A DNA stretch of 64,000 bases from an uncultured Anaerolineae bacterium (GCA_964487375.1 CAZAQA010000009.1:47747-111746), one strand, 5' to 3'. Positions 3,201 to 55,747 are shown, counted from the first letter of the stretch. Numbers and translations: made by a program. Notes: a model not told the origin generated them from the sequence alone.

Positions 3201-4983
3201 AATAGTCGGCCTGACGCAAGTTGTGTTTGATCACCTCGAATTTCTTGGCCCTGTCCTCATCGTACATGGGCATCGTGACGTAACGATAGCGTCCCGGGTT
3301 GGCGTTGGGCTCGGGCAGGGGCAGGGGAAGTTGTCGATCCCAGTGCTCCACAGCCAAGCCGGCACCGTCGGGGATATGGGCGTAAATCCAACGGGAGGCG
3401 ACAATCCACGGATGTGTGTGGTCATATACCCCATGCACGAACGCCAGGGACCAGAAGATGGCGTGGGCGAGCACGACACCTGTCAGCAAACAGCCTGCCC
3501 AATACCTCATGCCTGAGATCCGATGCCTGAGATCCGATATCCTGTTATAGGCACCGGGTACAGGATATCGGGTGCCGGATATCGAAGACAGCAAGCCTAC
3601 GCCGAAGATAATGAGCGCGGGCACGATGGGCAAGGTGTAGCGCATGAACTTGGCCAGAAAGAGCCCGGTTGGGCCGAAGTAGAACACCACCCAGGCCAGA
3701 AGCATCCACTCGCCCGGCCACAGGCGACGGCGCGCAGCCTGCACGAAGGCCCAGGCCAATCCCAGCCATCCCAAGAGCCCCAACGCCCAACCCATGCCCC
3801 AGCGGATGGACTGGTTGATGTGATAGAGATATGGAATCGTGCCCCGGTACTGACGCGTGAAGGGGAAATCCGCGTCGCCCCGCACCATGGCTCCCTGTTC
3901 GACGAGAACCGCTTGCCTAAAGTTAGGCCAATCGAGGATGACATAGGGGGAGGTGAGGGCGAAGACGACGGCCGCGGTGCCAAAGGCCAGGATAAGGAGT
4001 TTGATGATGGAAAGAGGACGATAGGCGATAGACGATGGACCGGGGTGGCCCTGTCGTCCACCGTCCACCGTCCATCGTCTGTGCAGCAAATATGTCGCAA
4101 TGAGCGGCGCTACGATAATAGGCAAGGCGCTAAACTTGCTGGCGATGGCCAGGGCCATGCCCACGCCTGTGAGCACTGCGTCACGCGGGCGTCCCTCTTC
4201 GGCCATGCGCATGCCGCCGTACACGGCCAGCATGGTGAATGTGGTGGACATGGGATCCACGGCAAAAAAGTGGGCCAACTGTATTTGCGTCACGGTGAAG
4301 GTGGAAAGGGCCGCGGCCAGTAATCCCCACCATTTTTCGTACAGACGACGGGCAATCAGGTAGACCAGAAAGACGGTCAGGGTGTCACTCAGGGCCATGA
4401 GCAAGCGTCCCACGAACGCGAACCCGGGCGGGCTGGTGGCGGTGCGCAGCATCTGAACCGTCTCCGAGGAAGCGCCCAGGGCCTTGGCCGCGGGGGCCAG
4501 ATGTTTCGCTCCGTTGGCCGTTAGGACTAACAAATACAGGGGGAAGTGGCCGTAAGTATAGGAACGGCGACGGTTCGTGTTCACGTCCCAGAGCGGGTTC
4601 AAGGTGGACTTGTGGGGCTTGAGGATGTCGCTCAGATGCTCAGGCCAGTGGATGGTCGGCGCGTAAAAGGCCACCGTGGAAAGTTCGTCTGGATGGGCAA
4701 GCTGGCCTTCGTCCCACATGACATGGTACGTCCGCAGGTAGAGAGCAACGAGCAGCACCAAGAGGACGAGCACGGGGTGAAGTCGGTCGCGCCAGGCACG
4801 GCCGGAGAGCGGGATAGCCGGTTCCGGCGGGGTCGGGGGCGAATTCTGTCCCCGGGACGGAGCGAATCCAGACGCGTGTTCCTCGCCTTCGGCGATCTGC
4901 TGGGACTTCTCTGTGACCTGGGTCTCCATGATAAGCGTTGGCATCCTCAGATTAGTGAGAGTGAACCGGGCTTGACAAGCCAC
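265..4983 (-). CDS. Very large (about 1560-1572 aa) polytopic membrane protein, GT-C fold / glycosyltransferase family 39 (PMT/ArnT-like) or DUF2298-like
   Basis: Single uninterrupted 1572-aa ORF. Dozens of hydrophobic segments rich in W/Y/F/L. N-terminal region resembles PMT_2/ArnT-type GT-C modules (runs of TM helices with short D/E-containing loops). Internal proline/lysine-rich hydrophilic loop (PPPPPEEKKGP). Alternative starts are GTG 4983, ATG 4944 and ATG 4929. Antisense long ORFs on the + strand were judged high-GC artefacts. Confidence 0.7.
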   Translation of the reverse strand: MACQARFTLTNLRMPTLIMETQVTEKSQQIAEGEEHASGFAPSRGQNSPPTPPEPAIPLSGRAWRDRLHPVLVLLVLLVALYLRTYHVMWDEGQLAHPDELSTVAFYAPTIHWPEHLSDILKPHKSTLNPLWDVNTNRRRSYTYGHFPLYLLVLTANGAKHLAPAAKALGASSETVQMLRTATSPPGFAFVGRLLMALSDTLTVFLVYLIARRLYEKWWGLLAAALSTFTVTQIQLAHFFAVDPMSTTFTMLAVYGGMRMAEEGRPRDAVLTGVGMALAIASKFSALPIIVAPLIATYLLHRRWTVDGGRQGHPGPSSIAYRPLSIIKLLILAFGTAAVVFALTSPYVILDWPNFRQAVLVEQGAMVRGDADFPFTRQYRGTIPYLYHINQSIRWGMGWALGLLGWLGLAWAFVQAARRRLWPGEWMLLAWVVFYFGPTGLFLAKFMRYTLPIVPALIIFGVGLLSSISGTRYPVPGAYNRISDLRHRISGMRYWAGCLLTGVVLAHAIFWSLAFVHGVYDHTHPWIVASRWIYAHIPDGAGLAVEHWDRQLPLPLPEPNANPGRYRYVTMPMYDEDRAKKFEVIKHNLRQADYYIFATARLYKSIPRLPQRYPMTTRFYRLFFAGQLGFVRVLDVHNYPQLGPFVFPDDRADESFWVYDHPRVLIYKKVRDLSDEEWNRLLGGTWKGAKHWDVGGATLLQRIFKLLPSLGKGQKTSAPPPPPEEKKGPSLLLNVNFDEMPVVRWWRWNRWASEHTWPAIVLWWFVVTLIGLVAWPMTFLGFSNLRDRGYAFARGVGLLVVAYLAWIVPSLRLWTNDLPLVLTVLVIVTLLNAWLARRHWEKLRSFVQQNRRLLLFYEGLFAAAYLAFVFIRLLNPDLWQPWNGGEKFMEIAFLNATVRTPYFPPYDPYFAGGTINYYYWGYQIVNVLIKLTGITPTVAFNLAVPTLFALTVLAACALVYDMVSDWAPRSARWAGLIGAAFVALFGNLDGLGLILRNLAQVSGSDFRSIFPWLQTWVRALVGLSKVLAHEAVMPKYNYWLPSRVIPYTINEFPYWSFLFADLHPHMMGIPFTIVVLGMAYNLIIGARRFWFTEGFWAGLVQFALLPLGLGALAVINTWDLPTYLGVLAVALFLRQWRTRKRISWGLWAVQVGFILVGAYLLYRPFFSHYKPIAASGVGWAPQKTSLGKWLNIWGFWLFLAFSFLAVELTRRDRLPLARGLRALVVHYERLPRFLRLQRLLSRARHPGAERSYQVSSFGYQLGIVFAILTPLLWLAGYRVPAVLLLPLFIAAVLSLRMNAPAGVVFATFLAFTALLVLFGVEFVYLKDHLQGGDFKRMNTLFKFYIQAWVMLALAAAVGLSRIWEAIPRWKPTVRTVWQTVFAVLLVASLTFLVVGTVARVEDRFPEGLSERPPFGTLDGMAYMKYGVYTWPDPQHRIVLKWDYEAIRWLLDHEPRVVPIAEARLDYYREGGTRVASFTGLPTFMGLHQMGEQRYGWQTGPRQQLALEFWNTSDINRTMAIIRQVDIHYVYVGQLERQQYPPAAITRFDRMVERGLLKVVYRNRGVVIYQVVK

Positions 4984-5171
4984 TCAATCTGTCCCGGATT
5001 ATACTCGCAGGCGTCTATCCCGAAAAGGACGCGTGCGAAAGGGAGATCGAAAAAGCTCCTCAGATGACGCCGTACAGGCAACACTCGGGTCGACAACGGT
5101 AGCGCCGTCGCCGACCTGCCACCACTTTCAAATAAGGGAACGCTGAAAAGCCCCAGTAAGTTTCAGCGGGC

Positions 5172-5200
5172 TTGGCAACTCGTGGAAAGTAGACTAAAAT
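5172..5200 (+). promoter_or_regulatory. Putative sigma70-type promoter upstream of rseP (TTGGCA-N17-TAAAAT)
   Basis: TTGGCA at 5172-5177, 17-nt spacer, TAAAAT at 5195-5200, about 45 nt upstream of the rseP start codon. It lies in the divergent intergenic region between the giant membrane protein and rseP. Assigned by pattern only. Confidence 0.3.
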
Positions 5201-5248
5201 GGGGGGCAACCGGTAGTGTAGAGAGGATGTCAGTTCACGGAGGGACCT

Positions 5249-6283
5249 GTGTCGGTTCTGATCTATGTTGTTATCCTGGCTGTTTTGATTTTGCTGCATG
5301 AGTTCGGACACTTCTACGTCGCGCGGCGCAACGGCATCGCGGTCGAAGAGTTCGGACTGGGATTGCCCCCGAAGCTCCTCTCGCTGGGACGCTGGCGGGA
5401 GACGGAGTTCACGTTGAATCTGTTGCCCATCGGCGGGTTTGCCCGGATGCGAGGGGAAGAAGAGGACGCAGGTCCCGGCAGCTTTTGGAGTGCTCCGGCC
5501 GGGGCACGGGCAAAAGTGCTCCTGGCCGGCCCGTTGATGAATATCCTCGTGGCCATCCTGGCTCTGACCCTGGCTTACTTGCTCTTCGTGCCCCATGACG
5601 GCCTCTGGATTGTCAACGTCGCGCCCGGGTATCCCGCGACCAGCGCAGGACTGCGCTCTGGAGATGTGGTCCTGAGTATCGATGGCAAGGCTGTCACCTC
5701 CCGAACGGACTTCATCGCCATCGTGCGGGCCCACGCACATGAGCCCGTCGAGCTGATCGTCCGGCGCGGGGAAAAGCAATTGACCGTAAAGGTCCGGCCC
5801 AAGATTGACCCGCGAGACCAGGTTCCTCGTATCGGCGTGCTGTTGGCCGAACCCATCCCCCTGTGGGAAGCGCCTCTAGGAGCGATCACCGAACTGTGGC
5901 TTTTCACTTCTGCAATGATTCATCTCCCGGGTCAGCTCTTGCAAGGGAAATTGACGGCCGCGGAAGCCCGCCCCCTGGGACCGGTGGGAATTGGCCGACT
6001 CTTCGTGGGGGTCGTCAGCGAACAGCCGAACGCGTTCATGCGTTGGTTCACCGTCTTGCGCCTGAGTGCGATCATCAGTTTTGCTCTGGGCCTGACCAAC
6101 CTGTTGCCCATCCCCGCGCTGGACGGCGGCCGACTGGTCTTCGTACTCCTGGAGATTGTGCGACGCGGCAAACGGGTGAGTCCGCAGAAAGAAGGGCTGG
6201 TCCACCTGGTGGGCATGACCATCCTTCTGGTTCTGATGGTTGTGATCACCTACTACGACATCCGGTATCCGCTGGGAGTGTAA
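5249..6283 (+). CDS. rseP: RseP-like site-2 protease (peptidase M50, zinc metalloprotease with PDZ domain)
   Basis: HEXXH motif LHEFGHF in the first TM helix. Central PDZ-like segment (GYPATSAGLRSGDVVLSIDGKAV). C-terminal LDGG motif (PIPALDGGRLV). Four hydrophobic segments. GTG start at 5249. Confidence 0.85.
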   Translation: MSVLIYVVILAVLILLHEFGHFYVARRNGIAVEEFGLGLPPKLLSLGRWRETEFTLNLLPIGGFARMRGEEEDAGPGSFWSAPAGARAKVLLAGPLMNILVAILALTLAYLLFVPHDGLWIVNVAPGYPATSAGLRSGDVVLSIDGKAVTSRTDFIAIVRAHAHEPVELIVRRGEKQLTVKVRPKIDPRDQVPRIGVLLAEPIPLWEAPLGAITELWLFTSAMIHLPGQLLQGKLTAAEARPLGPVGIGRLFVGVVSEQPNAFMRWFTVLRLSAIISFALGLTNLLPIPALDGGRLVFVLLEIVRRGKRVSPQKEGLVHLVGMTILLVLMVVITYYDIRYPLGV

Positions 6284-6284
6284 C

Positions 6285-7106
6285 TTGATCGGCAGCCGCG
6301 ACCACACGCGTGGAATCCTCTCCCGCTTGCGGGGGCAAGCACCCTTTGCACGCTCCTCCTCCACGAGGAGATCCGCTCGTCCGGTGAGGAAAATTTGCCC
6401 TCGCTGTGGCGCTCCCGTCCCTCCGGGCGTGCCCGTGTGCCCGACGTGTGGCGCGGCGTTGCCGCTCCCCAGGCGATACGTGCGTTGCCGCTATTGCGGC
6501 TACAAGGCCGATGCCCGGTTGCGAGTCTGTCCCTCTTGCGGTCGCACCCTGCGCCCCCGCCCCTGGTATCGGAACCGACTGCTTTACCTGACCTTAGGAC
6601 TTCTCTTGCTCGTCAGCGGGATCGGCATCTCCTCGGACTGGCGCCCTCATTTGAATCCGCAGGCCTGGCTGACTCAGGCGCGCACCCGGGTGAACGCCTT
6701 GCTGCCCGAGATGACGCCCATCGCCCTGGTGATCATCCCTTCCCCTACGCCCACGTCCACCTTCACCCCAACGTATACGCCATCCCCCACCTTCACACAA
6801 ACCCCGACGCCAACCATCACCCCGACGCCGACGGTCACGCCCACGCCCACACCCTTGCCCCCGGCAACGAAGTACAAGGTTCAGCCGGGGGACACGCCCG
6901 CCACGATTGCCCGCCAGTTTGGCATCCCGCTGGAGGTCCTCCTGGCGGCCAACGACTTGACGACTAAGGATGTCATCCGCGTAGGACAGGAGTTGACCAT
7001 CCCCTTGCCCACCCCAACACCAAGCCCCAGTCCGACTCCGACCAGGCCGGCGCCGAACCTTCGAACGGCAACGCCGACGGCAACGGTGATGCCAACATCG
7101 GGATGA
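6285..7106 (+). CDS. Type II single-pass membrane protein: N-terminal double zinc-ribbon, one TM helix, Pro/Thr-rich linkers, C-terminal LysM domain
   Basis: N-terminus has CPRCG...CPTCG and CRYCG...CPSCG, four CxxC pairs forming two zinc ribbons. TM segment LLYLTLGLLLLVSGIGI. Two PT-rich low-complexity linkers. LysM signature YKVQPGDTPATIARQFGIPLEVLLAANDL...RVGQELTIP. The start is TTG at 6285, 1 nt after the rseP stop (coupled), or GTG at 6384. Confidence 0.65.
   Translation: MIGSRDHTRGILSRLRGQAPFARSSSTRRSARPVRKICPRCGAPVPPGVPVCPTCGAALPLPRRYVRCRYCGYKADARLRVCPSCGRTLRPRPWYRNRLLYLTLGLLLLVSGIGISSDWRPHLNPQAWLTQARTRVNALLPEMTPIALVIIPSPTPTSTFTPTYTPSPTFTQTPTPTITPTPTVTPTPTPLPPATKYKVQPGDTPATIARQFGIPLEVLLAANDLTTKDVIRVGQELTIPLPTPTPSPSPTPTRPAPNLRTATPTATVMPTSG
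6740..6865 (+). repeat. Pro/Thr-rich low-complexity coding repeat (PTPT/TPTP units), with a second block at about 7010-7085
   Basis: DNA shows reiterated ACGCCnACn/CCCACG units encoding PSPTPTSTFTPTYTPSPTFTQTPTPTITPTPTVTPTPTP. A second block encodes PLPTPTPSPSPTPTRP. Confidence 0.5.
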
Positions 7107-15029: not shown

Positions 15030-15286
15030 GTCTTCGATGATAAGGAGAGTGCCCAGACAAAATCCATTCATCCCGACTCTCGGAGGACTATCGTTCTACA
15101 AAGGGAATCATTCATCCCCTGGCAGGGGCAAACGGCCTTTTCTTATACAATGCATACATCGCGCAAACCCTCATCTAACATTCTGCAGGGATACTGGAAG
15201 CAGCAACGAGAAACGTCGCAAATGGGGCGGATAGCGGATAAATGAAGCTAACCGCTCAAAGCACAAGAAGAACAAGGAGGATAACG

Positions 15287-15712
15287 ATGCGTGAGTATAC
15301 ACCTTTCGAGGCCATGATGCGAGAGATGTTGGGCCAGATGTTGGACCCGACGCTTCGGGGCAGGGAGTCCACGGCTCAGCCTCGCGCAGCTCGTCTACCT
15401 GTGGATGCGTGGCTGGACGGCGATAAGCTTATCCTGCAGGCCAATCTACCTGGCGCCCGTCCTGAAGATGTAGACATTACCTTTGAAGGGGATACGTTAA
15501 TCATCAATGCGGTGCTTCCCGAGCCCAAAATGAGTGGCCAGGCCGTGTTGCGGGGGCGCTACCATGGTCCCGTCCATCGAGCCCTGACGCTGGACATTCC
15601 GGTGGATGAAGAGAGGGCAGAAGCGGTGTTCAAGGATGGCGTGCTGACGCTGACCATGCCGCGAGCCGACAAGGGGCGCACCCGCAAGATTCACGTCAAG
15701 GCCGTCCCTTGA
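15287..15712 (+). CDS. Hsp20/alpha-crystallin family small heat-shock protein
   Basis: Alpha-crystallin domain with conserved P-x14-GVL-x-L (AVFKDGVLTLTMP). Sequence pattern VDAWLDGDKLILQANLPGARPEDVDITFEGDTLII. Confidence 0.85.
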   Translation: MREYTPFEAMMREMLGQMLDPTLRGRESTAQPRAARLPVDAWLDGDKLILQANLPGARPEDVDITFEGDTLIINAVLPEPKMSGQAVLRGRYHGPVHRALTLDIPVDEERAEAVFKDGVLTLTMPRADKGRTRKIHVKAVP

Positions 15713-15879
15713 GCGGGGTCGCTGCCCGATCTCTAACACTTCGCTAATTTTCGTCTTGCGTAGTTCTAACGCGACCTTGCTATAAAAAGGAATGGATTCC
15801 CAAAGGCGATGAGAGAGACGTGGGAATGCCCATCTTTCATCCTTGGGGAAGGACGTACACGTCCTGAGGAAGAAAGGAG

Positions 15880-16344
15880 GTGGCAATCATGGCTGAACTG
15901 ACGCTCTGGGAACCGGTACGCGAGGTGATGAACTTGCAGAGGGTGATGGACCGCATGTTGGAGGAAACGCTGGGCCCCTGGTACCAGCCGGTCGCGGACA
16001 GCGGTCGATGGGGACGCCGCTATGTGCCGGTGGACATTTACACGACGGATGAGAATGTGGTGATCCTGGCGGCGTTACCGGGGCTGCGCCCCGAGGACGT
16101 GGACATCACCTTCGAGGGGAACACGGTCACCCTGCGAGGTGAGTTCGCTCAGCCGACCGAGGAGAACATCAACTGGCACTTGCAGGAGCGCTATTACGGC
16201 CCCTTCGAGCGGACCATCACGCTCAACATCCCGGTGGACATGGATCACGCGGAGGCCTTTTTCGAGAACGGCCTGCTGAAGCTCATCATTCCCAAGGCCG
16301 AGGAGATTCGCCCCAAGAAGATCAAGGTTCATGTCAAAAAGTAA
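15880..16344 (+). CDS. Hsp20/alpha-crystallin family small heat-shock protein (second paralog)
   Basis: Paralogous to the previous gene (VDIYTTDENVVILAALPGLRPEDVDITFEGNTVTLRGE...FENGLLKLIIPK). GGAGG RBS. Confidence 0.85.
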   Translation: MAIMAELTLWEPVREVMNLQRVMDRMLEETLGPWYQPVADSGRWGRRYVPVDIYTTDENVVILAALPGLRPEDVDITFEGNTVTLRGEFAQPTEENINWHLQERYYGPFERTITLNIPVDMDHAEAFFENGLLKLIIPKAEEIRPKKIKVHVKK

Positions 16345-16362
16345 GGGACGGAAGCGCAGGGT

Positions 16363-16405
16363 AGGTCCTGAACAGGACCTGGGAGCGAGCCGCGGGCTCG
16401 CTCCC
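16363..16405 (+). terminator. Tandem GC-rich hairpins downstream of hsp20 (terminator-like, no U-tract)
   Basis: AGGTCCTG-aa-CAGGACCT (16363-16380). Immediately followed by GGGAGCGAGCC-gcg-GGCTCGCTCCC (16381-16405), an 11-bp perfect stem. Confidence 0.4.
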
Positions 16406-16468
16406 CCTGTGTCTAGAACCGATTACCATTCACTGTGAAGTATCCGTGTGTGAGCAGGAGGTGTGTCT

Positions 16469-16768
16469 ATGGGTTACAAGTTGCGACCTCTAGGAGATCG
16501 GGTGGTGGTCAAGCCGGTTGAACATGAGAATCAGTTGCCGAGTGGCATCATCCTGCCAGAGACCGCAAATGAAAAGCCTCAGATTGGTGAAGTGATTGCC
16601 GTCGGACCGGGCCAAAAGACCGAAGACGGCAAACGAGTCCCTCTCGATGTGGTGGTAGGTCAACAGGTTGCTTTCCCCAAGTATGCAGGAACGGAGCTGC
16701 GCCTCAACGGGGATACGTATTTGCTAATGCATGAGAATGATTTGCTCGCAGTCGTCGAACAGGAGTAA
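16469..16768 (+). CDS. groES: Co-chaperonin GroES
   Basis: About 100 aa. YKLRPLGDRVVVKPVE...GIILPETA motif. AGGAGG RBS 9 nt upstream of the ATG. Confidence 0.9.
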   Translation: MGYKLRPLGDRVVVKPVEHENQLPSGIILPETANEKPQIGEVIAVGPGQKTEDGKRVPLDVVVGQQVAFPKYAGTELRLNGDTYLLMHENDLLAVVEQE

Positions 16769-16856
16769 CCTACGGAAGGTATCAAGCATCCCATGGTGGG
16801 ATGAAGTTCATGGGCATACAGATCTCGAAGAGATTTCAACAAAAAGGAGGGTGTGA

Positions 16857-18506
<1,650 letters not shown>

Positions 18507-50330: not shown

Positions 50331-51485
50331 TCAGGGCCCCAAAAGCTGCCGGTAGAGTGCAGCGATGCGTTCTGCCATCACCCCGGCATCGAACTCCTTC
50401 CGCGCTCGCTCACGAGCCGACCGCCCCATGCGGGCTCGCTCCGCCGGGTGAGAAAACAGGAAGTTCAGGGCCTCGGCCAACGCCCCAGGTGCCCCGGGAG
50501 GAACGACCCAACCGGTTTCCCCGTGCACGTTCACGAAGGAGGTGCCCGTCCCCAATTCCGTGCTGATGACGGGCAGGCCGCTGGCCATCGCCTCTACCAG
50601 GACCAGGCCAAAGGCCTCGGCGCGAGAGGTAGAAGGGAGAACAAAGAGGTCCGCCGCGGCATAATAGAGGGGAAGGTCGGCCTCAGGGACATTTCCCAGG
50701 AAGACCACCCGGCGGTCGAGTCCCAGACGCCGGGCCAACTGACGCCACGGTTTCCCCATCGGCCCGGTGCCGATGACCCAGAGGTGTAGCTCGGGGACCT
50801 GGACCAAAGCGTGTAGAAGAACGTCCAGTCCTTTGTAATAGCGCAGCCGGCCGACGAACAAAGCCAGGGGAACATCGGCTTCCCGGCCCCACACGCGCTC
50901 GCGTATCGTGGCCGCCCGGGCCCGGTCCACATGCAAGAAAGGGGCCAGCTCGATCCCCAGAGGGATGGGATGAACGTCTCGGGCCACGGCTTGCAGCTCG
51001 GAGGATGAACGGGCATAAGCAGGGCTGCTGACGATGATGGCATCGGCCCTGGCAAGTACGCGGCGCAGCAAAGGGCGGTATAGACGTAGAATGCGCTGCT
51101 GCCGCACAACATCCGAGTGGTAGGTAATGACCGTCACGCGCGCCCGTCCCCAGAGGAGGTTGGCGATCTCCCCTGGGGGGTAGGGGAAGTGCAGGTGCGC
51201 CACGTCAGCGGTGAGCGTCGCTTGATAGAGGAGCTGACGAGGGCTGAGGGGGGTGGAAGCCACCGTAGCCAATCTGCCGGCACGCAGCACGCGCACGGGA
51301 CCGTCCTGTTCCACGCCAGTGCGAAGACTGTAAGGAAAAGGGGCAGGATTGGTCGCCAAGACGGTAACCTCAAACCCCTGCTGCACCTGACGGTGAGCCA
51401 GGGTGTGGATGTGTTTCTCCATGCCGCCCGCAACAGGGGGGAAATAGTCCTTATAAACGTGGAGAACCCGCAAAGGGCTGGACAT
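50331..51485 (-). CDS. Glycosyltransferase family 4
   Basis: LRVLHVYKDYFPPVAGGMEKH N-terminus. C-terminal EAFGLVLVEAMASGLPVISTE. Confidence 0.8.
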   Translation of the reverse strand: MSSPLRVLHVYKDYFPPVAGGMEKHIHTLAHRQVQQGFEVTVLATNPAPFPYSLRTGVEQDGPVRVLRAGRLATVASTPLSPRQLLYQATLTADVAHLHFPYPPGEIANLLWGRARVTVITYHSDVVRQQRILRLYRPLLRRVLARADAIIVSSPAYARSSSELQAVARDVHPIPLGIELAPFLHVDRARAATIRERVWGREADVPLALFVGRLRYYKGLDVLLHALVQVPELHLWVIGTGPMGKPWRQLARRLGLDRRVVFLGNVPEADLPLYYAAADLFVLPSTSRAEAFGLVLVEAMASGLPVISTELGTGTSFVNVHGETGWVVPPGAPGALAEALNFLFSHPAERARMGRSARERARKEFDAGVMAERIAALYRQLLGP

Positions 51486-51491
51486 GAGAGA

Positions 51492-51743
51492 CTACCGTTC
51501 CGTAATGAAGTCGTCCAGATTCAACACCCGGAAAAGGCGTACCTCCACTTCATGAGGCATTTCTGGGGGTTCGAGACGGTGATACAGGGCCAGCGTCTTG
51601 CTCATGGAATCAAACACGACGTAGCAATTGCGGCATGTGGCCAGATGTTCTTCGATGGCCTGGCAAAGGCTGGGAGAGAGTTCTCCGTCCACATACGCGC
51701 TGATCAAATTGAGCACATCCGTACAGTTCAATTGAGCAGCCAT
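51492..51743 (-). CDS. ZAS-type (zinc-binding) anti-sigma factor
   Basis: H-x3-C-x2-C motif HLATCRNC with an additional upstream Cys (SLCQ), as in RsrA-family redox-sensing anti-sigma factors. Sits 64 nt downstream of the ECF sigma gene. About 83 aa. Confidence 0.6.
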   Translation of the reverse strand: MAAQLNCTDVLNLISAYVDGELSPSLCQAIEEHLATCRNCYVVFDSMSKTLALYHRLEPPEMPHEVEVRLFRVLNLDDFITER

Positions 51744-51806
51744 ACACACTCCGTTCTTCATCCTCCGAGGCCAAGCCCCGAGGATTCAAAGGAGGCTCCT
51801 ATGCGG

Positions 51807-52436
51807 TCAGGTGTCAAGTTCTTTTGAAACGGGACCGGTCACATCCCACCCTTCCACATAAGGGGTGAGAAATTCCCGCAACAGTAGCCGCGCTCGATGC
51901 AACCGCACCTTCGTCGCCGACTCGCTAATTCCCAACGCCTGGGCCGTTTCCAATGTAGAAAGCCCCTCCAGTTCCCGCAGGATGAAGACGACCCGCAGCG
52001 TTTGCGGAAGTTTGCGAATAGCTGCCTCCAACACCTCTCGTAATTCTCCAGTCAGGACGATGTGATGGGGATCAAATCTCCAGTCCGCCAGATTGCGAGG
52101 CAGAACCCCTCCCTCATCGGTCTCCACCGGTGCATCCAGGGAAATTGGGTCTTCCCGGCGCTTGCGTAACCGCATCAGGGCGGCATTCGTCGCCACGCGG
52201 TAAAGCCAGGTTCCAAGTTGTGAGTCCCCGCGAAAAGAGCGTATCTTGCTGCAGGCATTGATGAACGCCTCCTGCAGGGCTTCCTCAGCCTCCTCTTCGA
52301 CCCCAAGAATCCGCAATGTGACTCGATACAGTTTGGGAGAATAGCGACGCACCAACTCCGCACAGGCACGCCGATCGCCCGCCTGTAATGCGGCCAGCAA
52401 ATCGGATTCGGTTGCGTATTCTTGCCCTTCAGTCAT
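51807..52436 (-). CDS. ECF (sigma-70 family group 4) RNA polymerase sigma factor
   Basis: Region 2 (LVRRYSPKLYRVTLRILGVEEEAEEALQEAFINA). Region 4 HTH (LSTLETAQALGISESATKVRLHRAR). Confidence 0.85.
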   Translation of the reverse strand: MTEGQEYATESDLLAALQAGDRRACAELVRRYSPKLYRVTLRILGVEEEAEEALQEAFINACSKIRSFRGDSQLGTWLYRVATNAALMRLRKRREDPISLDAPVETDEGGVLPRNLADWRFDPHHIVLTGELREVLEAAIRKLPQTLRVVFILRELEGLSTLETAQALGISESATKVRLHRARLLLREFLTPYVEGWDVTGPVSKELDT

Positions 52437-52491
52437 TGGATGCACTTGCCCTTACATGCGTTACGCCGCCCGTTTATGGGTGCCCCTTCCA

Positions 52492-52845
52492 TCACGGGAG
52501 ATCCCCGACCTCCTCTTGTTCGGGCAATCGGGCACGCAACGCGCGCCCGATTGCGTATGGCTCGGCTGAACCGTGTAGGAGGAGGTCGTACTCTCCCTTG
52601 TCATCGACGAGAAAGACCAGCGGGAAGCGAAGGCCTTGCTTGCGCGCGGCGCGAATGAGATCGAAATAGCGCTCCATCACGTCCATCTCGTTCGCGTCCA
52701 CGTAGACCACTTCCAGGGGCAGGCTCATGCTGCGTTGGATGTAAACCCTGGAGGCCTGCGCCAGTTGTTCGGCCGTGTACACCGGACCACAGGTCTTGCA
52801 GAATCGATTCTCTTCCTCTGAGTGTCCGATAATCAGAATATGCAT
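52492..52845 (-). CDS. Thioredoxin-fold CxxC protein, YuzD/DUF1462-like putative disulfide oxidoreductase
   Basis: 117 aa. Short beta-strand then CKTCG (CxxC) then helix, followed by a strand with FPLVFLVDDKGEYDLL. Pattern recalled from Bacillus YuzD; the family call is from memory. Confidence 0.5.
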   Translation of the reverse strand: MHILIIGHSEEENRFCKTCGPVYTAEQLAQASRVYIQRSMSLPLEVVYVDANEMDVMERYFDLIRAARKQGLRFPLVFLVDDKGEYDLLLHGSAEPYAIGRALRARLPEQEEVGDLP

Positions 52846-52932
52846 GATGTGCCCTCTCCTCTGAAAGTCCTTTTCGGCCCACGGCAGACAGTTGGGGATC
52901 CTCGTCTATCGATCTTCTCCCTCATGACCTTT

Positions 52933-53706
52933 TCATATCCCCGCCGCTTGACGAATGCGCTGCCGCAGGACCGGTCCGGGGAGAGCGCCCACGATACGGT
53001 CCACCACCTGACCGTTGCGAATGACCAGCAATGTGGGGATGCTGCGCACGCCGTACATCGCGGCTGTACGTGGATTCTCGTCCACGTTCAGTTTGGCCAC
53101 CAGGAGCTTACCCGCGTACTCGCGCGCGATTTGCTCCAGGACCGGCGCAATCATGCGACAAGGAGCACACCAGGGCGCCCACAAGTCCACCACCACCGGA
53201 ATACGCGAGCCGAGTACGAGCTGCTGGAAGGTGGCATCCGTCACCACTACCGGCGCGTCGGGATGAGAGGAAGGACCGCGCTGTGGTCCGGACCCGGGAC
53301 GCGGTTGGGCTCCGGCCAGGGGGACAGACGCGCCTCCGCGTATCGTCCCCGAGCGGGGCCGCTTCCCCAAAAGCACCTCCAGCTCCTGTTGGAGGGCCTG
53401 CTCCCCTACTTCGCCCACGATGCGTTCTACCTCGCGGCCCTCCTTGAGGAGGACAACGGTGGGGACGGCCTCGATGTGATATCGATGGGCCGCCTCGGGC
53501 GTGTCGGTCACATTTGCCCGCACCACCAGTACGTCTCCGGCAAACTCGCGGGCCAGATGCTTGAGCGCGTCCTCCATGCGGTCGCACGGAGGACAATTCC
53601 CCTTCCAGAAAACGATCAGCACCGGAATCGGCGAACGTTCCACTTTCTTGAAGGCCGGATCGGTCACGTGAATCGGTTCGAAAAAAACAGGCATTGGGTC
53701 CTCCAA
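52933..53706 (-). CDS. trxA: Tandem-domain thioredoxin (two Trx folds joined by a Gly/Pro/Arg-rich linker)
   Basis: Domain 1 active site WKGNCPPCDRM (CPPC). Domain 2 WAPWCAPCRMIAPVLEQIAREYAGKLLVAKLNVDENP...GVRSIPTLLV, a canonical Trx with CAPC. Confidence 0.8.
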   Translation of the reverse strand: MEDPMPVFFEPIHVTDPAFKKVERSPIPVLIVFWKGNCPPCDRMEDALKHLAREFAGDVLVVRANVTDTPEAAHRYHIEAVPTVVLLKEGREVERIVGEVGEQALQQELEVLLGKRPRSGTIRGGASVPLAGAQPRPGSGPQRGPSSHPDAPVVVTDATFQQLVLGSRIPVVVDLWAPWCAPCRMIAPVLEQIAREYAGKLLVAKLNVDENPRTAAMYGVRSIPTLLVIRNGQVVDRIVGALPGPVLRQRIRQAAGI

Positions 53707-55363: not shown

Positions 55364-55747
55364 CGCCGGCCCTATCCGATTCTATTCGCGCCCGGTGGAA
55401 GCCGTGAAAACGGCCTTCGACCCTCGGCCATTTCCCCCGACCGCCCTCGCATTATACGGTATTTCTCCCCATCTGTCATCTACTCGTCCGAGATGGAGAG
55501 TTCCAAACTCCGCTCAGAGCCCTCATCCTCGGCCCTCTCCTCCCGAATTCGGACGAGGGAGAGGCGTTAATGGCCTCCGATTGCGCAACCGTTGCGTTAA
55601 AACGTTCAAAAGCCCCATCGCCCAGCGAACGAAGTTGATTCCCACCTTCAAAATACGTTATCATGCGAGGGTGTGAACGGACGGCGTTGTGCTGTACAAT
55701 CGGCATGCGGATCTAGACATAGCTAGGCCTGGATGAAAGGTGCTCCT

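Follow-up and report, generated by a model that had tools for sequence, protein, structure and literature searches.

A 64,000-nucleotide (nt) stretch of DNA from an uncultured Anaerolineae bacterium (GCA_964487375.1 CAZAQA010000009.1:47747-111746), referred to here as the window, carries on its minus strand a run of genes that reads Elp3, tandem thioredoxin (trx), a 117-residue CxxC protein designated P117, a sigma factor of the extracytoplasmic function (ECF) type, a zinc-binding anti-sigma factor (ZAS), a glycosyltransferase of the GT4 family, an amidase, YbeY, and DgkA. A first-pass annotation of the window had grouped an ECF sigma, a ZAS anti-sigma, a YuzD-like CxxC protein, and a tandem thioredoxin in one co-directional module, and all four genes were indeed found on the minus strand. 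The module as drawn at that time left out GT4, which is a conserved member of the cassette. The features of the cassette, with positions counted from the first letter of the window, are the following.

52933 to 53694, minus strand: tandem thioredoxin of 253 amino acids (aa) (PF00085, TIGR01068), an optional upstream member of the cassette
52492 to 52845, minus strand: P117, a 117-aa CxxC protein with a remote YuzD/DUF1462-like thioredoxin fold, the first gene of the conserved core
52439 to 52464, minus strand: bipartite motif of ECF type (GTAAC-N17-CATC) that overlaps the sigma gene at its 5' end
51807 to 52445, minus strand: ECF (group IV) sigma factor (Sigma70_r2, r4_2, TIGR02937), starting at GTG 52445 or ATG 52436
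51492 to 51743, minus strand: soluble ZAS anti-sigma of 83 aa that consists of the anti-sigma domain only (zf-HC2; C7, C27, H33, C37, C40)
50331 to 51485, minus strand: GT4-family glycosyltransferase of 384 aa, 6 nt past the anti-sigma stop, the conserved fourth gene of the cassette

The genes of the run, which has Elp3 (55363 to 53732) at its head, are closely spaced, with gaps of 37 to 87 nt around trx, P117, sigma, and anti-sigma and of 6 to 87 nt across the cassette when GT4 is included. No terminator-like site was found within the intergenic gaps of the minus-strand run. Two near-identical metagenome contigs with independent gene calls contained the same genes, including the 253-aa thioredoxin, a 209-aa sigma, and the 83-aa anti-sigma. 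These calls agree with a likely trx start at an ATG four codons inside the TTG (53706) chosen in the first-pass annotation, and they favor the 83-aa product over the 89-aa open reading frame (ORF) for the anti-sigma. The GC content is about 60%, and homologues are annotated as belonging to metagenome-assembled genomes of Chloroflexi or Anaerolineae. Rfam, searched over 47 to 57 kb of the window, gave no match, and neither did PADLOC.

The context of P117 was examined in all retrievable loci, which yielded nine distinct cassette loci in Chloroflexota; five loci from a wider sigma family brought the number of sigma-ZAS loci compared to 14, and a metagenome scan added only 3 further short loci. 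Every locus behind the linkage data is from a metagenome-assembled genome of a single phylum. P117, sigma, and anti-sigma kept their order in all nine cassette loci, and GT4 lay directly 3' of the ZAS gene in every one of the eight in which the contig continues. The flanks varied, with Elp3, a methyltransferase, efflux adaptor/ABC genes, or an FAA hydrolase upstream and an amidase, LysM-YkuD, Wzy-like, DegV, or unknown genes downstream. The linkage of the CxxC protein, sigma, and ZAS is not due to chance, as it is kept in nine of nine distinct loci with different flanks.

Among the flanking genes, the Elp3 homologue of the window (radical SAM plus GNAT; TIGR01211, 514 bits against a cutoff of 350) is directly upstream of trx both in the window and in the locus that we number L012, and its orientation differs in L003. 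YknX/MacA-like efflux adaptors precede the cassette in L004, L005, L015, and L016, accompanied by ABC ATPases in L005; the downstream flanks of these four loci include LysM-YkuD genes in two and Wzy_C/TPR and MraY-like genes in one.

The tandem thioredoxin was less widely distributed. The protein consists of an N-terminal domain with a CPPC motif and a C-terminal domain with WCAPC, matches PF00085 in 2 stretches (160 bits), and scores above the threshold of the curated thioredoxin model TIGR01068 (179 bits; cutoff, 96.8). Both CxxC motifs are conserved in all four trx orthologues, the first reading CEPC in L004. The gene was present in four of the nine distinct loci (the window, L012, L003, and L004), where the sigma is 79 to 100% identical to that of the window, and absent from the five loci with sigma identities of 72 to 75%, a distribution that looks like a single gain or loss. 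In L003, 2 nt separate trx from the CxxC gene, and in L004 and L012, 21 to 22 nt do, which suggests co-expression. The core thus consists of P117, sigma, anti-sigma, and GT4, with trx facultative, and the earlier four-gene picture has to be redrawn.

The sigma factor scored 60.5 bits with PF04542, 56.4 bits with PF08281, and 104.7 bits with TIGR02937 (cutoff, 42.9), which identifies it as an ECF sigma. It reached no equivalog cutoff: PRK11922 gave 177 bits against 204, and the SigW models, the next-best NCBIfam matches, gave 131 against 209 (PRK09641) and 130 against 243 (TIGR02948). Its best solved relative is SigW (5wuq; E = 2e-28), and among the solved sigmas matched, SigR ranked last. Chloroflexi do not figure in the main text of the ECF reclassification paper.

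Two cysteines of the sigma, C25 and C62 (numbered from the ATG at 52436), varied together. Among the 120 closest homologues, 99 carried Cys at both positions, 21 carried Tyr/Phe plus Phe, and none was mixed; in SigW, in RpoE, and in an AlgU-like sigma, Phe and Tyr occupy these columns. Given this perfect covariation, the two residues are very likely in contact within sigma domain 2. The pair could be a disulfide switch as in SigK or a mere core-packing variant, and the 21 aromatic/aromatic homologues may form a single clade.

The anti-sigma matched zf-HC2 (PF13490) with 53.1 bits against a cutoff of 22.2 (E = 3e-14) and contained no hydrophobic segment. As the protein is soluble and has neither a membrane nor a sensor domain, the signal that reaches it must be cytoplasmic. 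C7, C27, H33, C37, and C40 were invariant in the 12 anti-sigmas examined, which accompany sigmas of 53 to 100% identity. The ZAS signature H-x3-C-x2-C (H33, C37, C40) with an extra Cys, which had been read from the window alone, is therefore conserved across homologues together with the upstream C7, and these four residues form a CHCC set of predicted zinc ligands with C27 as one spare Cys. In a BLASTP comparison, the pattern C-x19-C-x5-H-x3-C-x2-C aligned without gaps to C11/C31/H37/C41/C44 of RsrA; the K33-K47 segment of the RsrA sequence used agrees with the published one (PMC3177212). The best solved relative is RsiW (E = 3e-5), and a PDB search with the anti-sigma recovered no RsrA structure at E <= 1. 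Thiol sensing by the anti-sigma is a plausible reading.

P117 of the window had no direct match in Pfam or NCBIfam. Its relatives were more informative: 10 of 13 family members matched DUF1462/YuzD (best E = 2.8e-4), and the remote relatives P0154, P0153, and P0139 scored 33.8, 28.6, and 25.4 bits with DUF1462 (PF07315), for which the gathering score is 25. An AlphaFold2 model of P117 (pLDDT, 86.5) had as its best PDB fold match S. aureus 1xg8 (E = 3.4e-3; TM-score, 0.56 to 0.59), followed by thioredoxins, b' domains of protein disulfide isomerase, and ArsD, and a profile search also picked 1xg8. The earlier label "YuzD-like" is thus probably right at the level of remote homology. The family is rare, with 13 clusters found among 5.8 billion and 26 representatives (E <= 1e-3) among 1.84 billion; P0135, a 1,157-aa protein with 16 repeats that came up in the representative search, was discarded as an artefact, a translated tandem repeat. 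Invariant features of the family include H8, C16, C19, an RFPLVF motif, and H91. H8 and H91 are unmatched in the aligned YuzD-family structure 1xg8. H8, C16, C19, and H91 may together make up a metal site close to the active site of the thioredoxin fold.

GT4 matched Glycos_transf_1 (140 bits) and Glyco_transf_4 (80 bits). We considered whether it might be an enzyme of low-molecular-weight thiol synthesis and rejected this, since MshA and BshA, the top NCBIfam names, scored 109 bits against 462 and 95 bits against 274, respectively. Its PDB matches were generic, MshA and BshA being no better than sucrose-phosphate synthase or PimA, and no HPDD motif of an LmbE-type deacetylase was found in the window.

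Beyond the cassette, the identity of sigma homologues falls sharply. Proteins at 70% or above constitute the P117-linked clade (16 proteins); the next lie at or below 61% and belong to a large sigma family from Anaerolineae and Caldilineales, of which six loci were examined. In three of these (L017, L019, and L021; about 4300 to 6500 in each), a divergent DUF302 gene is followed by the sigma, a small ZAS, and OsmC, and the ZAS start overlaps the sigma 3' end by 4 nt in L017 and L019 and by 11 nt in L021. Two of the six contain sigma and ZAS without OsmC. In the remaining locus (L010, 4299 to 9758), a sigma 61% identical to that of the window lies amid a CsoR-like gene, a single Trx, a glutaredoxin (Grx)-like CPHC gene, GroES, and OsmC; no anti-sigma gene is evident there, and P117-like fragments occur in three frames at 6001 to 6320, possibly as a pseudogene. 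This recurrent peroxide/thiol neighborhood of the wider sigma family, at 55 to 61% identity, is the best support for a redox theme.

Next, the regions upstream of the sigma genes were aligned, and a single conserved non-coding feature emerged, GTAAC-N17-CATC, with the second element usually reading GCATC. Each of the nine cassette loci contained exactly one copy, in every case at the sigma gene's 5' end, and the motif was found at the sigma start in all five wider-family sigma-ZAS loci as well (once with a 16-nt spacer), for a total of 14 of 14 (the window, L003 to L006, L008, L012, L015 to L017, and L019 to L022). An exact copy is expected by chance 0.23 times per 64 kb, the length of the window. 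The -35 element and the spacer match the ECF16 consensus, (T/C)GTAAC-N17-CGAA (PMC8315932). From locus to locus, the reading frame of CATC changes, or CATC lies outside the ORF, and the constraint is therefore on nucleic acid rather than on peptide. A SigR-type motif, GGAAT-N18-GTT, shared by the trx, CxxC, and sigma genes was looked for and was absent; GTAAC-N17-CATC at the sigma 5' end was found instead.

The window and all cassette intergenic regions were also scanned for relaxed versions of the motif, allowing one mismatch and spacers of 16 to 18 nt. No conserved copy was detected upstream of trx, P117, anti-sigma, GT4, or Elp3, and two one-mismatch matches upstream of trx were confined to L012. 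Because the motif sits at the sigma 5' end, downstream of both trx and the CxxC gene, the trx genes are not shown to be the regulon. The earlier proposal that the Trx genes are the likely regulon is accordingly unsupported, as trx is limited to four of nine loci in one shallow subclade and the conserved motif never lies upstream of it. Trx is a facultative, shallow addition, more plausibly on the input side of the system than in its regulon.

Other readings of the motif were considered. GTAAC as a -10 element, with a leaderless ATG 8 nt farther on in four loci, was not adopted, since no conserved -35 element accompanies it and the CATC at a fixed distance would be unexplained. A SigR-like element on the opposite strand, GGATG-N17-GTTAC, was rejected because it would send antisense transcripts into the sigma gene, P117, or groES; its -35 half is conserved only as GATG, whereas all 14 loci have the forward GTAAC. 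Nor does an RNA hairpin explain the motif, as GGATG/CATCC pairing is found in L021 and in the groES-groEL copy described below but is not conserved.

The sigma start codon overlaps or closely adjoins the motif in 13 of the 14 loci. It lies within the 17-nt spacer (in four loci as an ATG exactly 8 nt past GTAAC), directly before CAT, or 2 to 4 nt past CATC. L021 alone has its start codon 17 nt past CATC, with no upstream alternative. Over approximately eight codons past CATC, no stop is present in 12 loci, and these codons are therefore probably translated.

Two further sites in the window bear on the transcription of these genes.

16765 to 16790, plus strand: a further exact match to GTAAC-N17-CATC, located between groES and groEL, 70 nt ahead of the groEL ATG
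55451 to 55479, minus strand: sigma-70-like match ATGACA-N17-TATAAT upstream of Elp3, agreeing at 11 of 12 consensus positions, a consensus match only

The groES-groEL copy overlaps a hairpin, CATCCCA-TGG-TGGGATG, at 16787 to 16803 (7-bp stem, 3-nt loop), and is possibly a target promoter or a coincidence. It lies within an Hsp20-Hsp20-GroES-GroEL cluster (15242 to 18506). In L010, a copy of the motif approximately 75 nt upstream of the Grx-like gene has ordinary promoter geometry, as does the groES-groEL copy. The sigma-70-like site before Elp3 is a candidate for a housekeeping promoter that serves the entire co-directional run. In L004 (~2640 to 2660), L015 (~5975 to 5990), and L016 (~2850 to 2870), a -10-like hexamer, TATACT, was also found upstream of the first cassette gene, with TG-rich sequence before it. 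These hexamers suggest housekeeping-type transcription of trx/P117 with read-through into the sigma gene.

We propose that the cassette encodes a cytoplasmic ECF/ZAS stress switch, probably thiol or oxidant related, that belongs to a large uncharacterized family in Chloroflexota, a reading to which we assign an even chance. The anti-sigma would hold the sigma through its four-helix anti-sigma domain. Most likely, the signal would consist in the thiols bound to zinc being oxidized or modified, whereupon the sigma would come free, as it does from RsrA; together with RNA polymerase, the sigma would then recognize GTAAC-N17-CATC. Since the cassette has its sole copy of the motif at the 5' end of sigma, the sigma-dependent unit would be the part downstream of it, namely, anti-sigma and GT4 in the cassette and, in the wider family, anti-sigma and OsmC. 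Read from housekeeping-type upstream promoters, the CxxC protein and trx would serve as input or reset factors that keep the anti-sigma, and possibly the sigma Cys pair, reduced or return them to that state, and would not be the output regulon. A more elaborate form of this proposal is a multilayer thiol switch undescribed for any ECF group. It would combine a domain-only anti-sigma carrying the CHCC site and a spare Cys; a regulatory disulfide of a buried Cys pair in sigma region 2, where other ECFs have a Phe/Tyr core pair; a dedicated YuzD-like CxxC oxidoreductase (with trx in some lineages) that writes or resets the thiols; and a promoter over the sigma start that amplifies anti-sigma and GT4 or OsmC, but not the sigma. 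We regard this full version as improbable.

A number of observations weigh against a thiol- or oxidant-related switch. By sequence match, the nearest solved pair is SigW/RsiW, not SigR/RsrA, and the anti-sigma did not pass the RsrA family model TIGR03988 (33.8 bits against a cutoff of 62.5). Residues E39, E40, L45, and E46 confer redox sensitivity on RsrA (PMC3177212); the corresponding residues in the window are A35, T36, Y41, and V42, so that none of the four is kept, and the family as a whole keeps at most the E40 equivalent. The CHCC site of RsiW is structural, not a redox sensor, and can form a disulfide without release of SigW, and RsiW is insensitive to oxidation (PMC5358783). No redox gene of the cassette has the motif upstream, and the conserved glycosyltransferase downstream suggests an envelope function rather than thiol homeostasis. 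Each linkage pattern, moreover, may trace to one or a few evolutionary events. Finally, in 13 of 14 loci, a transcription start at the usual 7 to 10 nt past CATC would lie beyond the annotated start codon of the sigma, and the promoter reading is therefore incomplete. This overlap has four possible explanations: the sigma-dependent transcript may carry only the anti-sigma and the downstream effector; start-site selection may be unusual; a shorter sigma isoform may be made, by analogy with the two SigR isoforms (PMC7826278); or the element may not be a promoter.

The strongest alternative is that the module serves envelope or antimicrobial stress in the manner of SigW, with a structural zinc site, a signal delivered by proteolysis or by a partner such as the CxxC protein, and envelope remodeling by GT4 as the output. 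It draws on SigW (E = 2e-28) and RsiW (E = 3e-5) as the nearest solved relatives and on SigW models as the next-best NCBIfam matches, on GT4 after the anti-sigma in all eight informative loci, and on the absence of the RsrA redox determinants; the envelope and export neighbors of L004, L005, L015, and L016 (YknX/MacA-like adaptors and ABC genes upstream, transpeptidase-like LysM-YkuD or Wzy_C/MraY-like genes downstream) fit it as well. We nevertheless consider it unlikely. Regulated intramembrane proteolysis of the RsiW type cannot apply because the anti-sigma has no transmembrane or extracytoplasmic part, the SigW equivalog cutoffs were missed (130 to 131 bits against 209 to 243), the envelope flanks are not conserved across loci, and the genes to which the wider family is linked are those for OsmC, Grx, and Trx, not envelope genes. 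A switch responsive to Zn, Cu, or As-type thiophilic metals, in which the Cys and His of the anti-sigma and possibly H8/C16/C19/H91 of P117 would bind metal and P117 would act as an ArsD-like metallochaperone, is very unlikely in our estimation. P117 does have two invariant His and two invariant Cys, ArsD is among its fold matches (3kgk; TM-score, 0.50 to 0.57), and a remote relative matches Pfam ArsD; a CsoR-like gene adjoins the related sigma in L010, and efflux adaptors are adjacent to the cassette in 4 loci. The ArsD matches, however, are weak and rank below YuzD and thioredoxin, and the cassette has no conserved metal transporter or metallothionein.

It could also be that the adjacency of trx is a lineage-specific accident of gene order and that the motif is some other DNA or RNA signal at the sigma translation start rather than a promoter. 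The confinement of trx to loci with sigma identities of at least 79%, and its absence at 72 to 75%, is consistent with one insertion event, and the overlap of motif and start codon in 13 of 14 loci and the hairpin at the groES-groEL copy would suit a signal of another kind. Little credence is given to this explanation, however, because the motif is asymmetric and bipartite, with a variable spacer sequence of fixed length (17 nt, once 16) and a CATC whose frame varies, a pattern that typifies sigma recognition and would not be typical for a dimeric repressor or for a constraint on the peptide, and because it matches the -35 element and spacer of a known ECF group; the short spacing between trx and the CxxC gene (2 nt in L003, 21 to 22 nt in L004 and L012) likewise suggests co-expression. 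Overall, the cassette is a real, uncharacterized variant of the ECF/ZAS stress module in which thiol sensing is plausible and a trx regulon is unsupported.

To our knowledge, a good understanding of thiol-sensing zinc anti-sigmas is limited to Actinobacteria. The motif alone does not predict which of the many ZAS proteins elsewhere sense redox, and the cassette offers a compact, testable case in a phylum with almost no characterized sigma regulation. It falls outside the SigR and SigW paradigms in having an obligate YuzD-like CxxC partner, a co-varying sigma Cys pair, and an ECF-type motif over the sigma start codon. The partner could also give a first functional handle on DUF1462. If none of these features proves functional, the cassette would be one more uncharacterized ECF/anti-sigma operon.

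P117 has its best fold and profile match in YuzD/DUF1462 (PF07315), represented by 1xg8, which is S. aureus SA0798; the two have in common a CxxC a few residues ahead of helix 1, a beta-alpha-beta...beta-beta-alpha layout, and a cis-Pro-type PL(V/I) strand. They differ in that identity is only about 15% and H8, H91, and an EEENRF motif are specific to the 13-member P117 family. A literature search on YuzD found no functional paper.

The sigma Cys pair recalls SigK-RskA (ECF19), which likewise combines a conserved Cys pair inside the sigma with an anti-sigma and in which the disulfide switch lies within the sigma itself (PMC7826278). Unlike in SigK, the pair described here is in sigma region 2, at columns occupied by Phe/Tyr in other ECFs, and its contact is predicted from covariation only.

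At the level of the putative promoter, the cassette resembles ECF16 (Brucella BcrS/AbcS and Bradyrhizobium EcfF/OsrA), with which it shares the -35 element (T/C)GTAAC and the 17-nt spacer (PMC8315932). The oxidants to which these ECF16-type systems are responsive are HOCl, H2O2, or singlet oxygen (PMC8315932, PMC3420878). The -10 element, however, is CATC here and CGAA there, and the ECF16 anti-sigmas are DUF1109 membrane proteins, not ZAS proteins.

SigW-RsiW of B. subtilis (5wuq) is the closest solved relative of both sigma and anti-sigma, and the CHCC motif is common to the two systems. RsiW is a membrane protein under regulated proteolysis (PMC5358783), whereas the anti-sigma of the cassette is soluble and 83 aa long. 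With the equivalog cutoffs missed and no membrane anti-sigma, the cassette is not of the SigW-RsiW (ECF30) type.

SigR-RsrA of actinomycetes (ECF12), with which the first-pass annotation had drawn its analogy, likewise has a soluble anti-sigma that consists of the anti-sigma domain only, and the N-terminal Cys, the spare Cys, and H-x3-C-x2-C are identically spaced in the two anti-sigmas. Thioredoxin-type genes are near in both, and the logic proposed is the same, in that thiol oxidation would free the sigma and thioredoxin would reset the system. The differences are that the RsrA model was failed, the redox determinants are lost, the motif is GTAAC-N17-CATC and not GGAAT-N18-GTT, trx lies upstream of the motif without a copy of its own, and the YuzD-like protein and GT4 are extra conserved partners. 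Thus, the analogy stands in part: the sigma is non-actinobacterial, the soluble ZAS has the RsrA Cys/His pattern, a CxxC protein is linked, and OsmC, Grx, and Trx occur near the relatives of the cassette. It does not extend to an RsrA-type sequence, to the redox determinants, or to a general link with trx, which is found only in a shallow subclade, and SigW/RsiW is closer. Judged from these likenesses and differences, the module may work like SigR-RsrA but outside that family.

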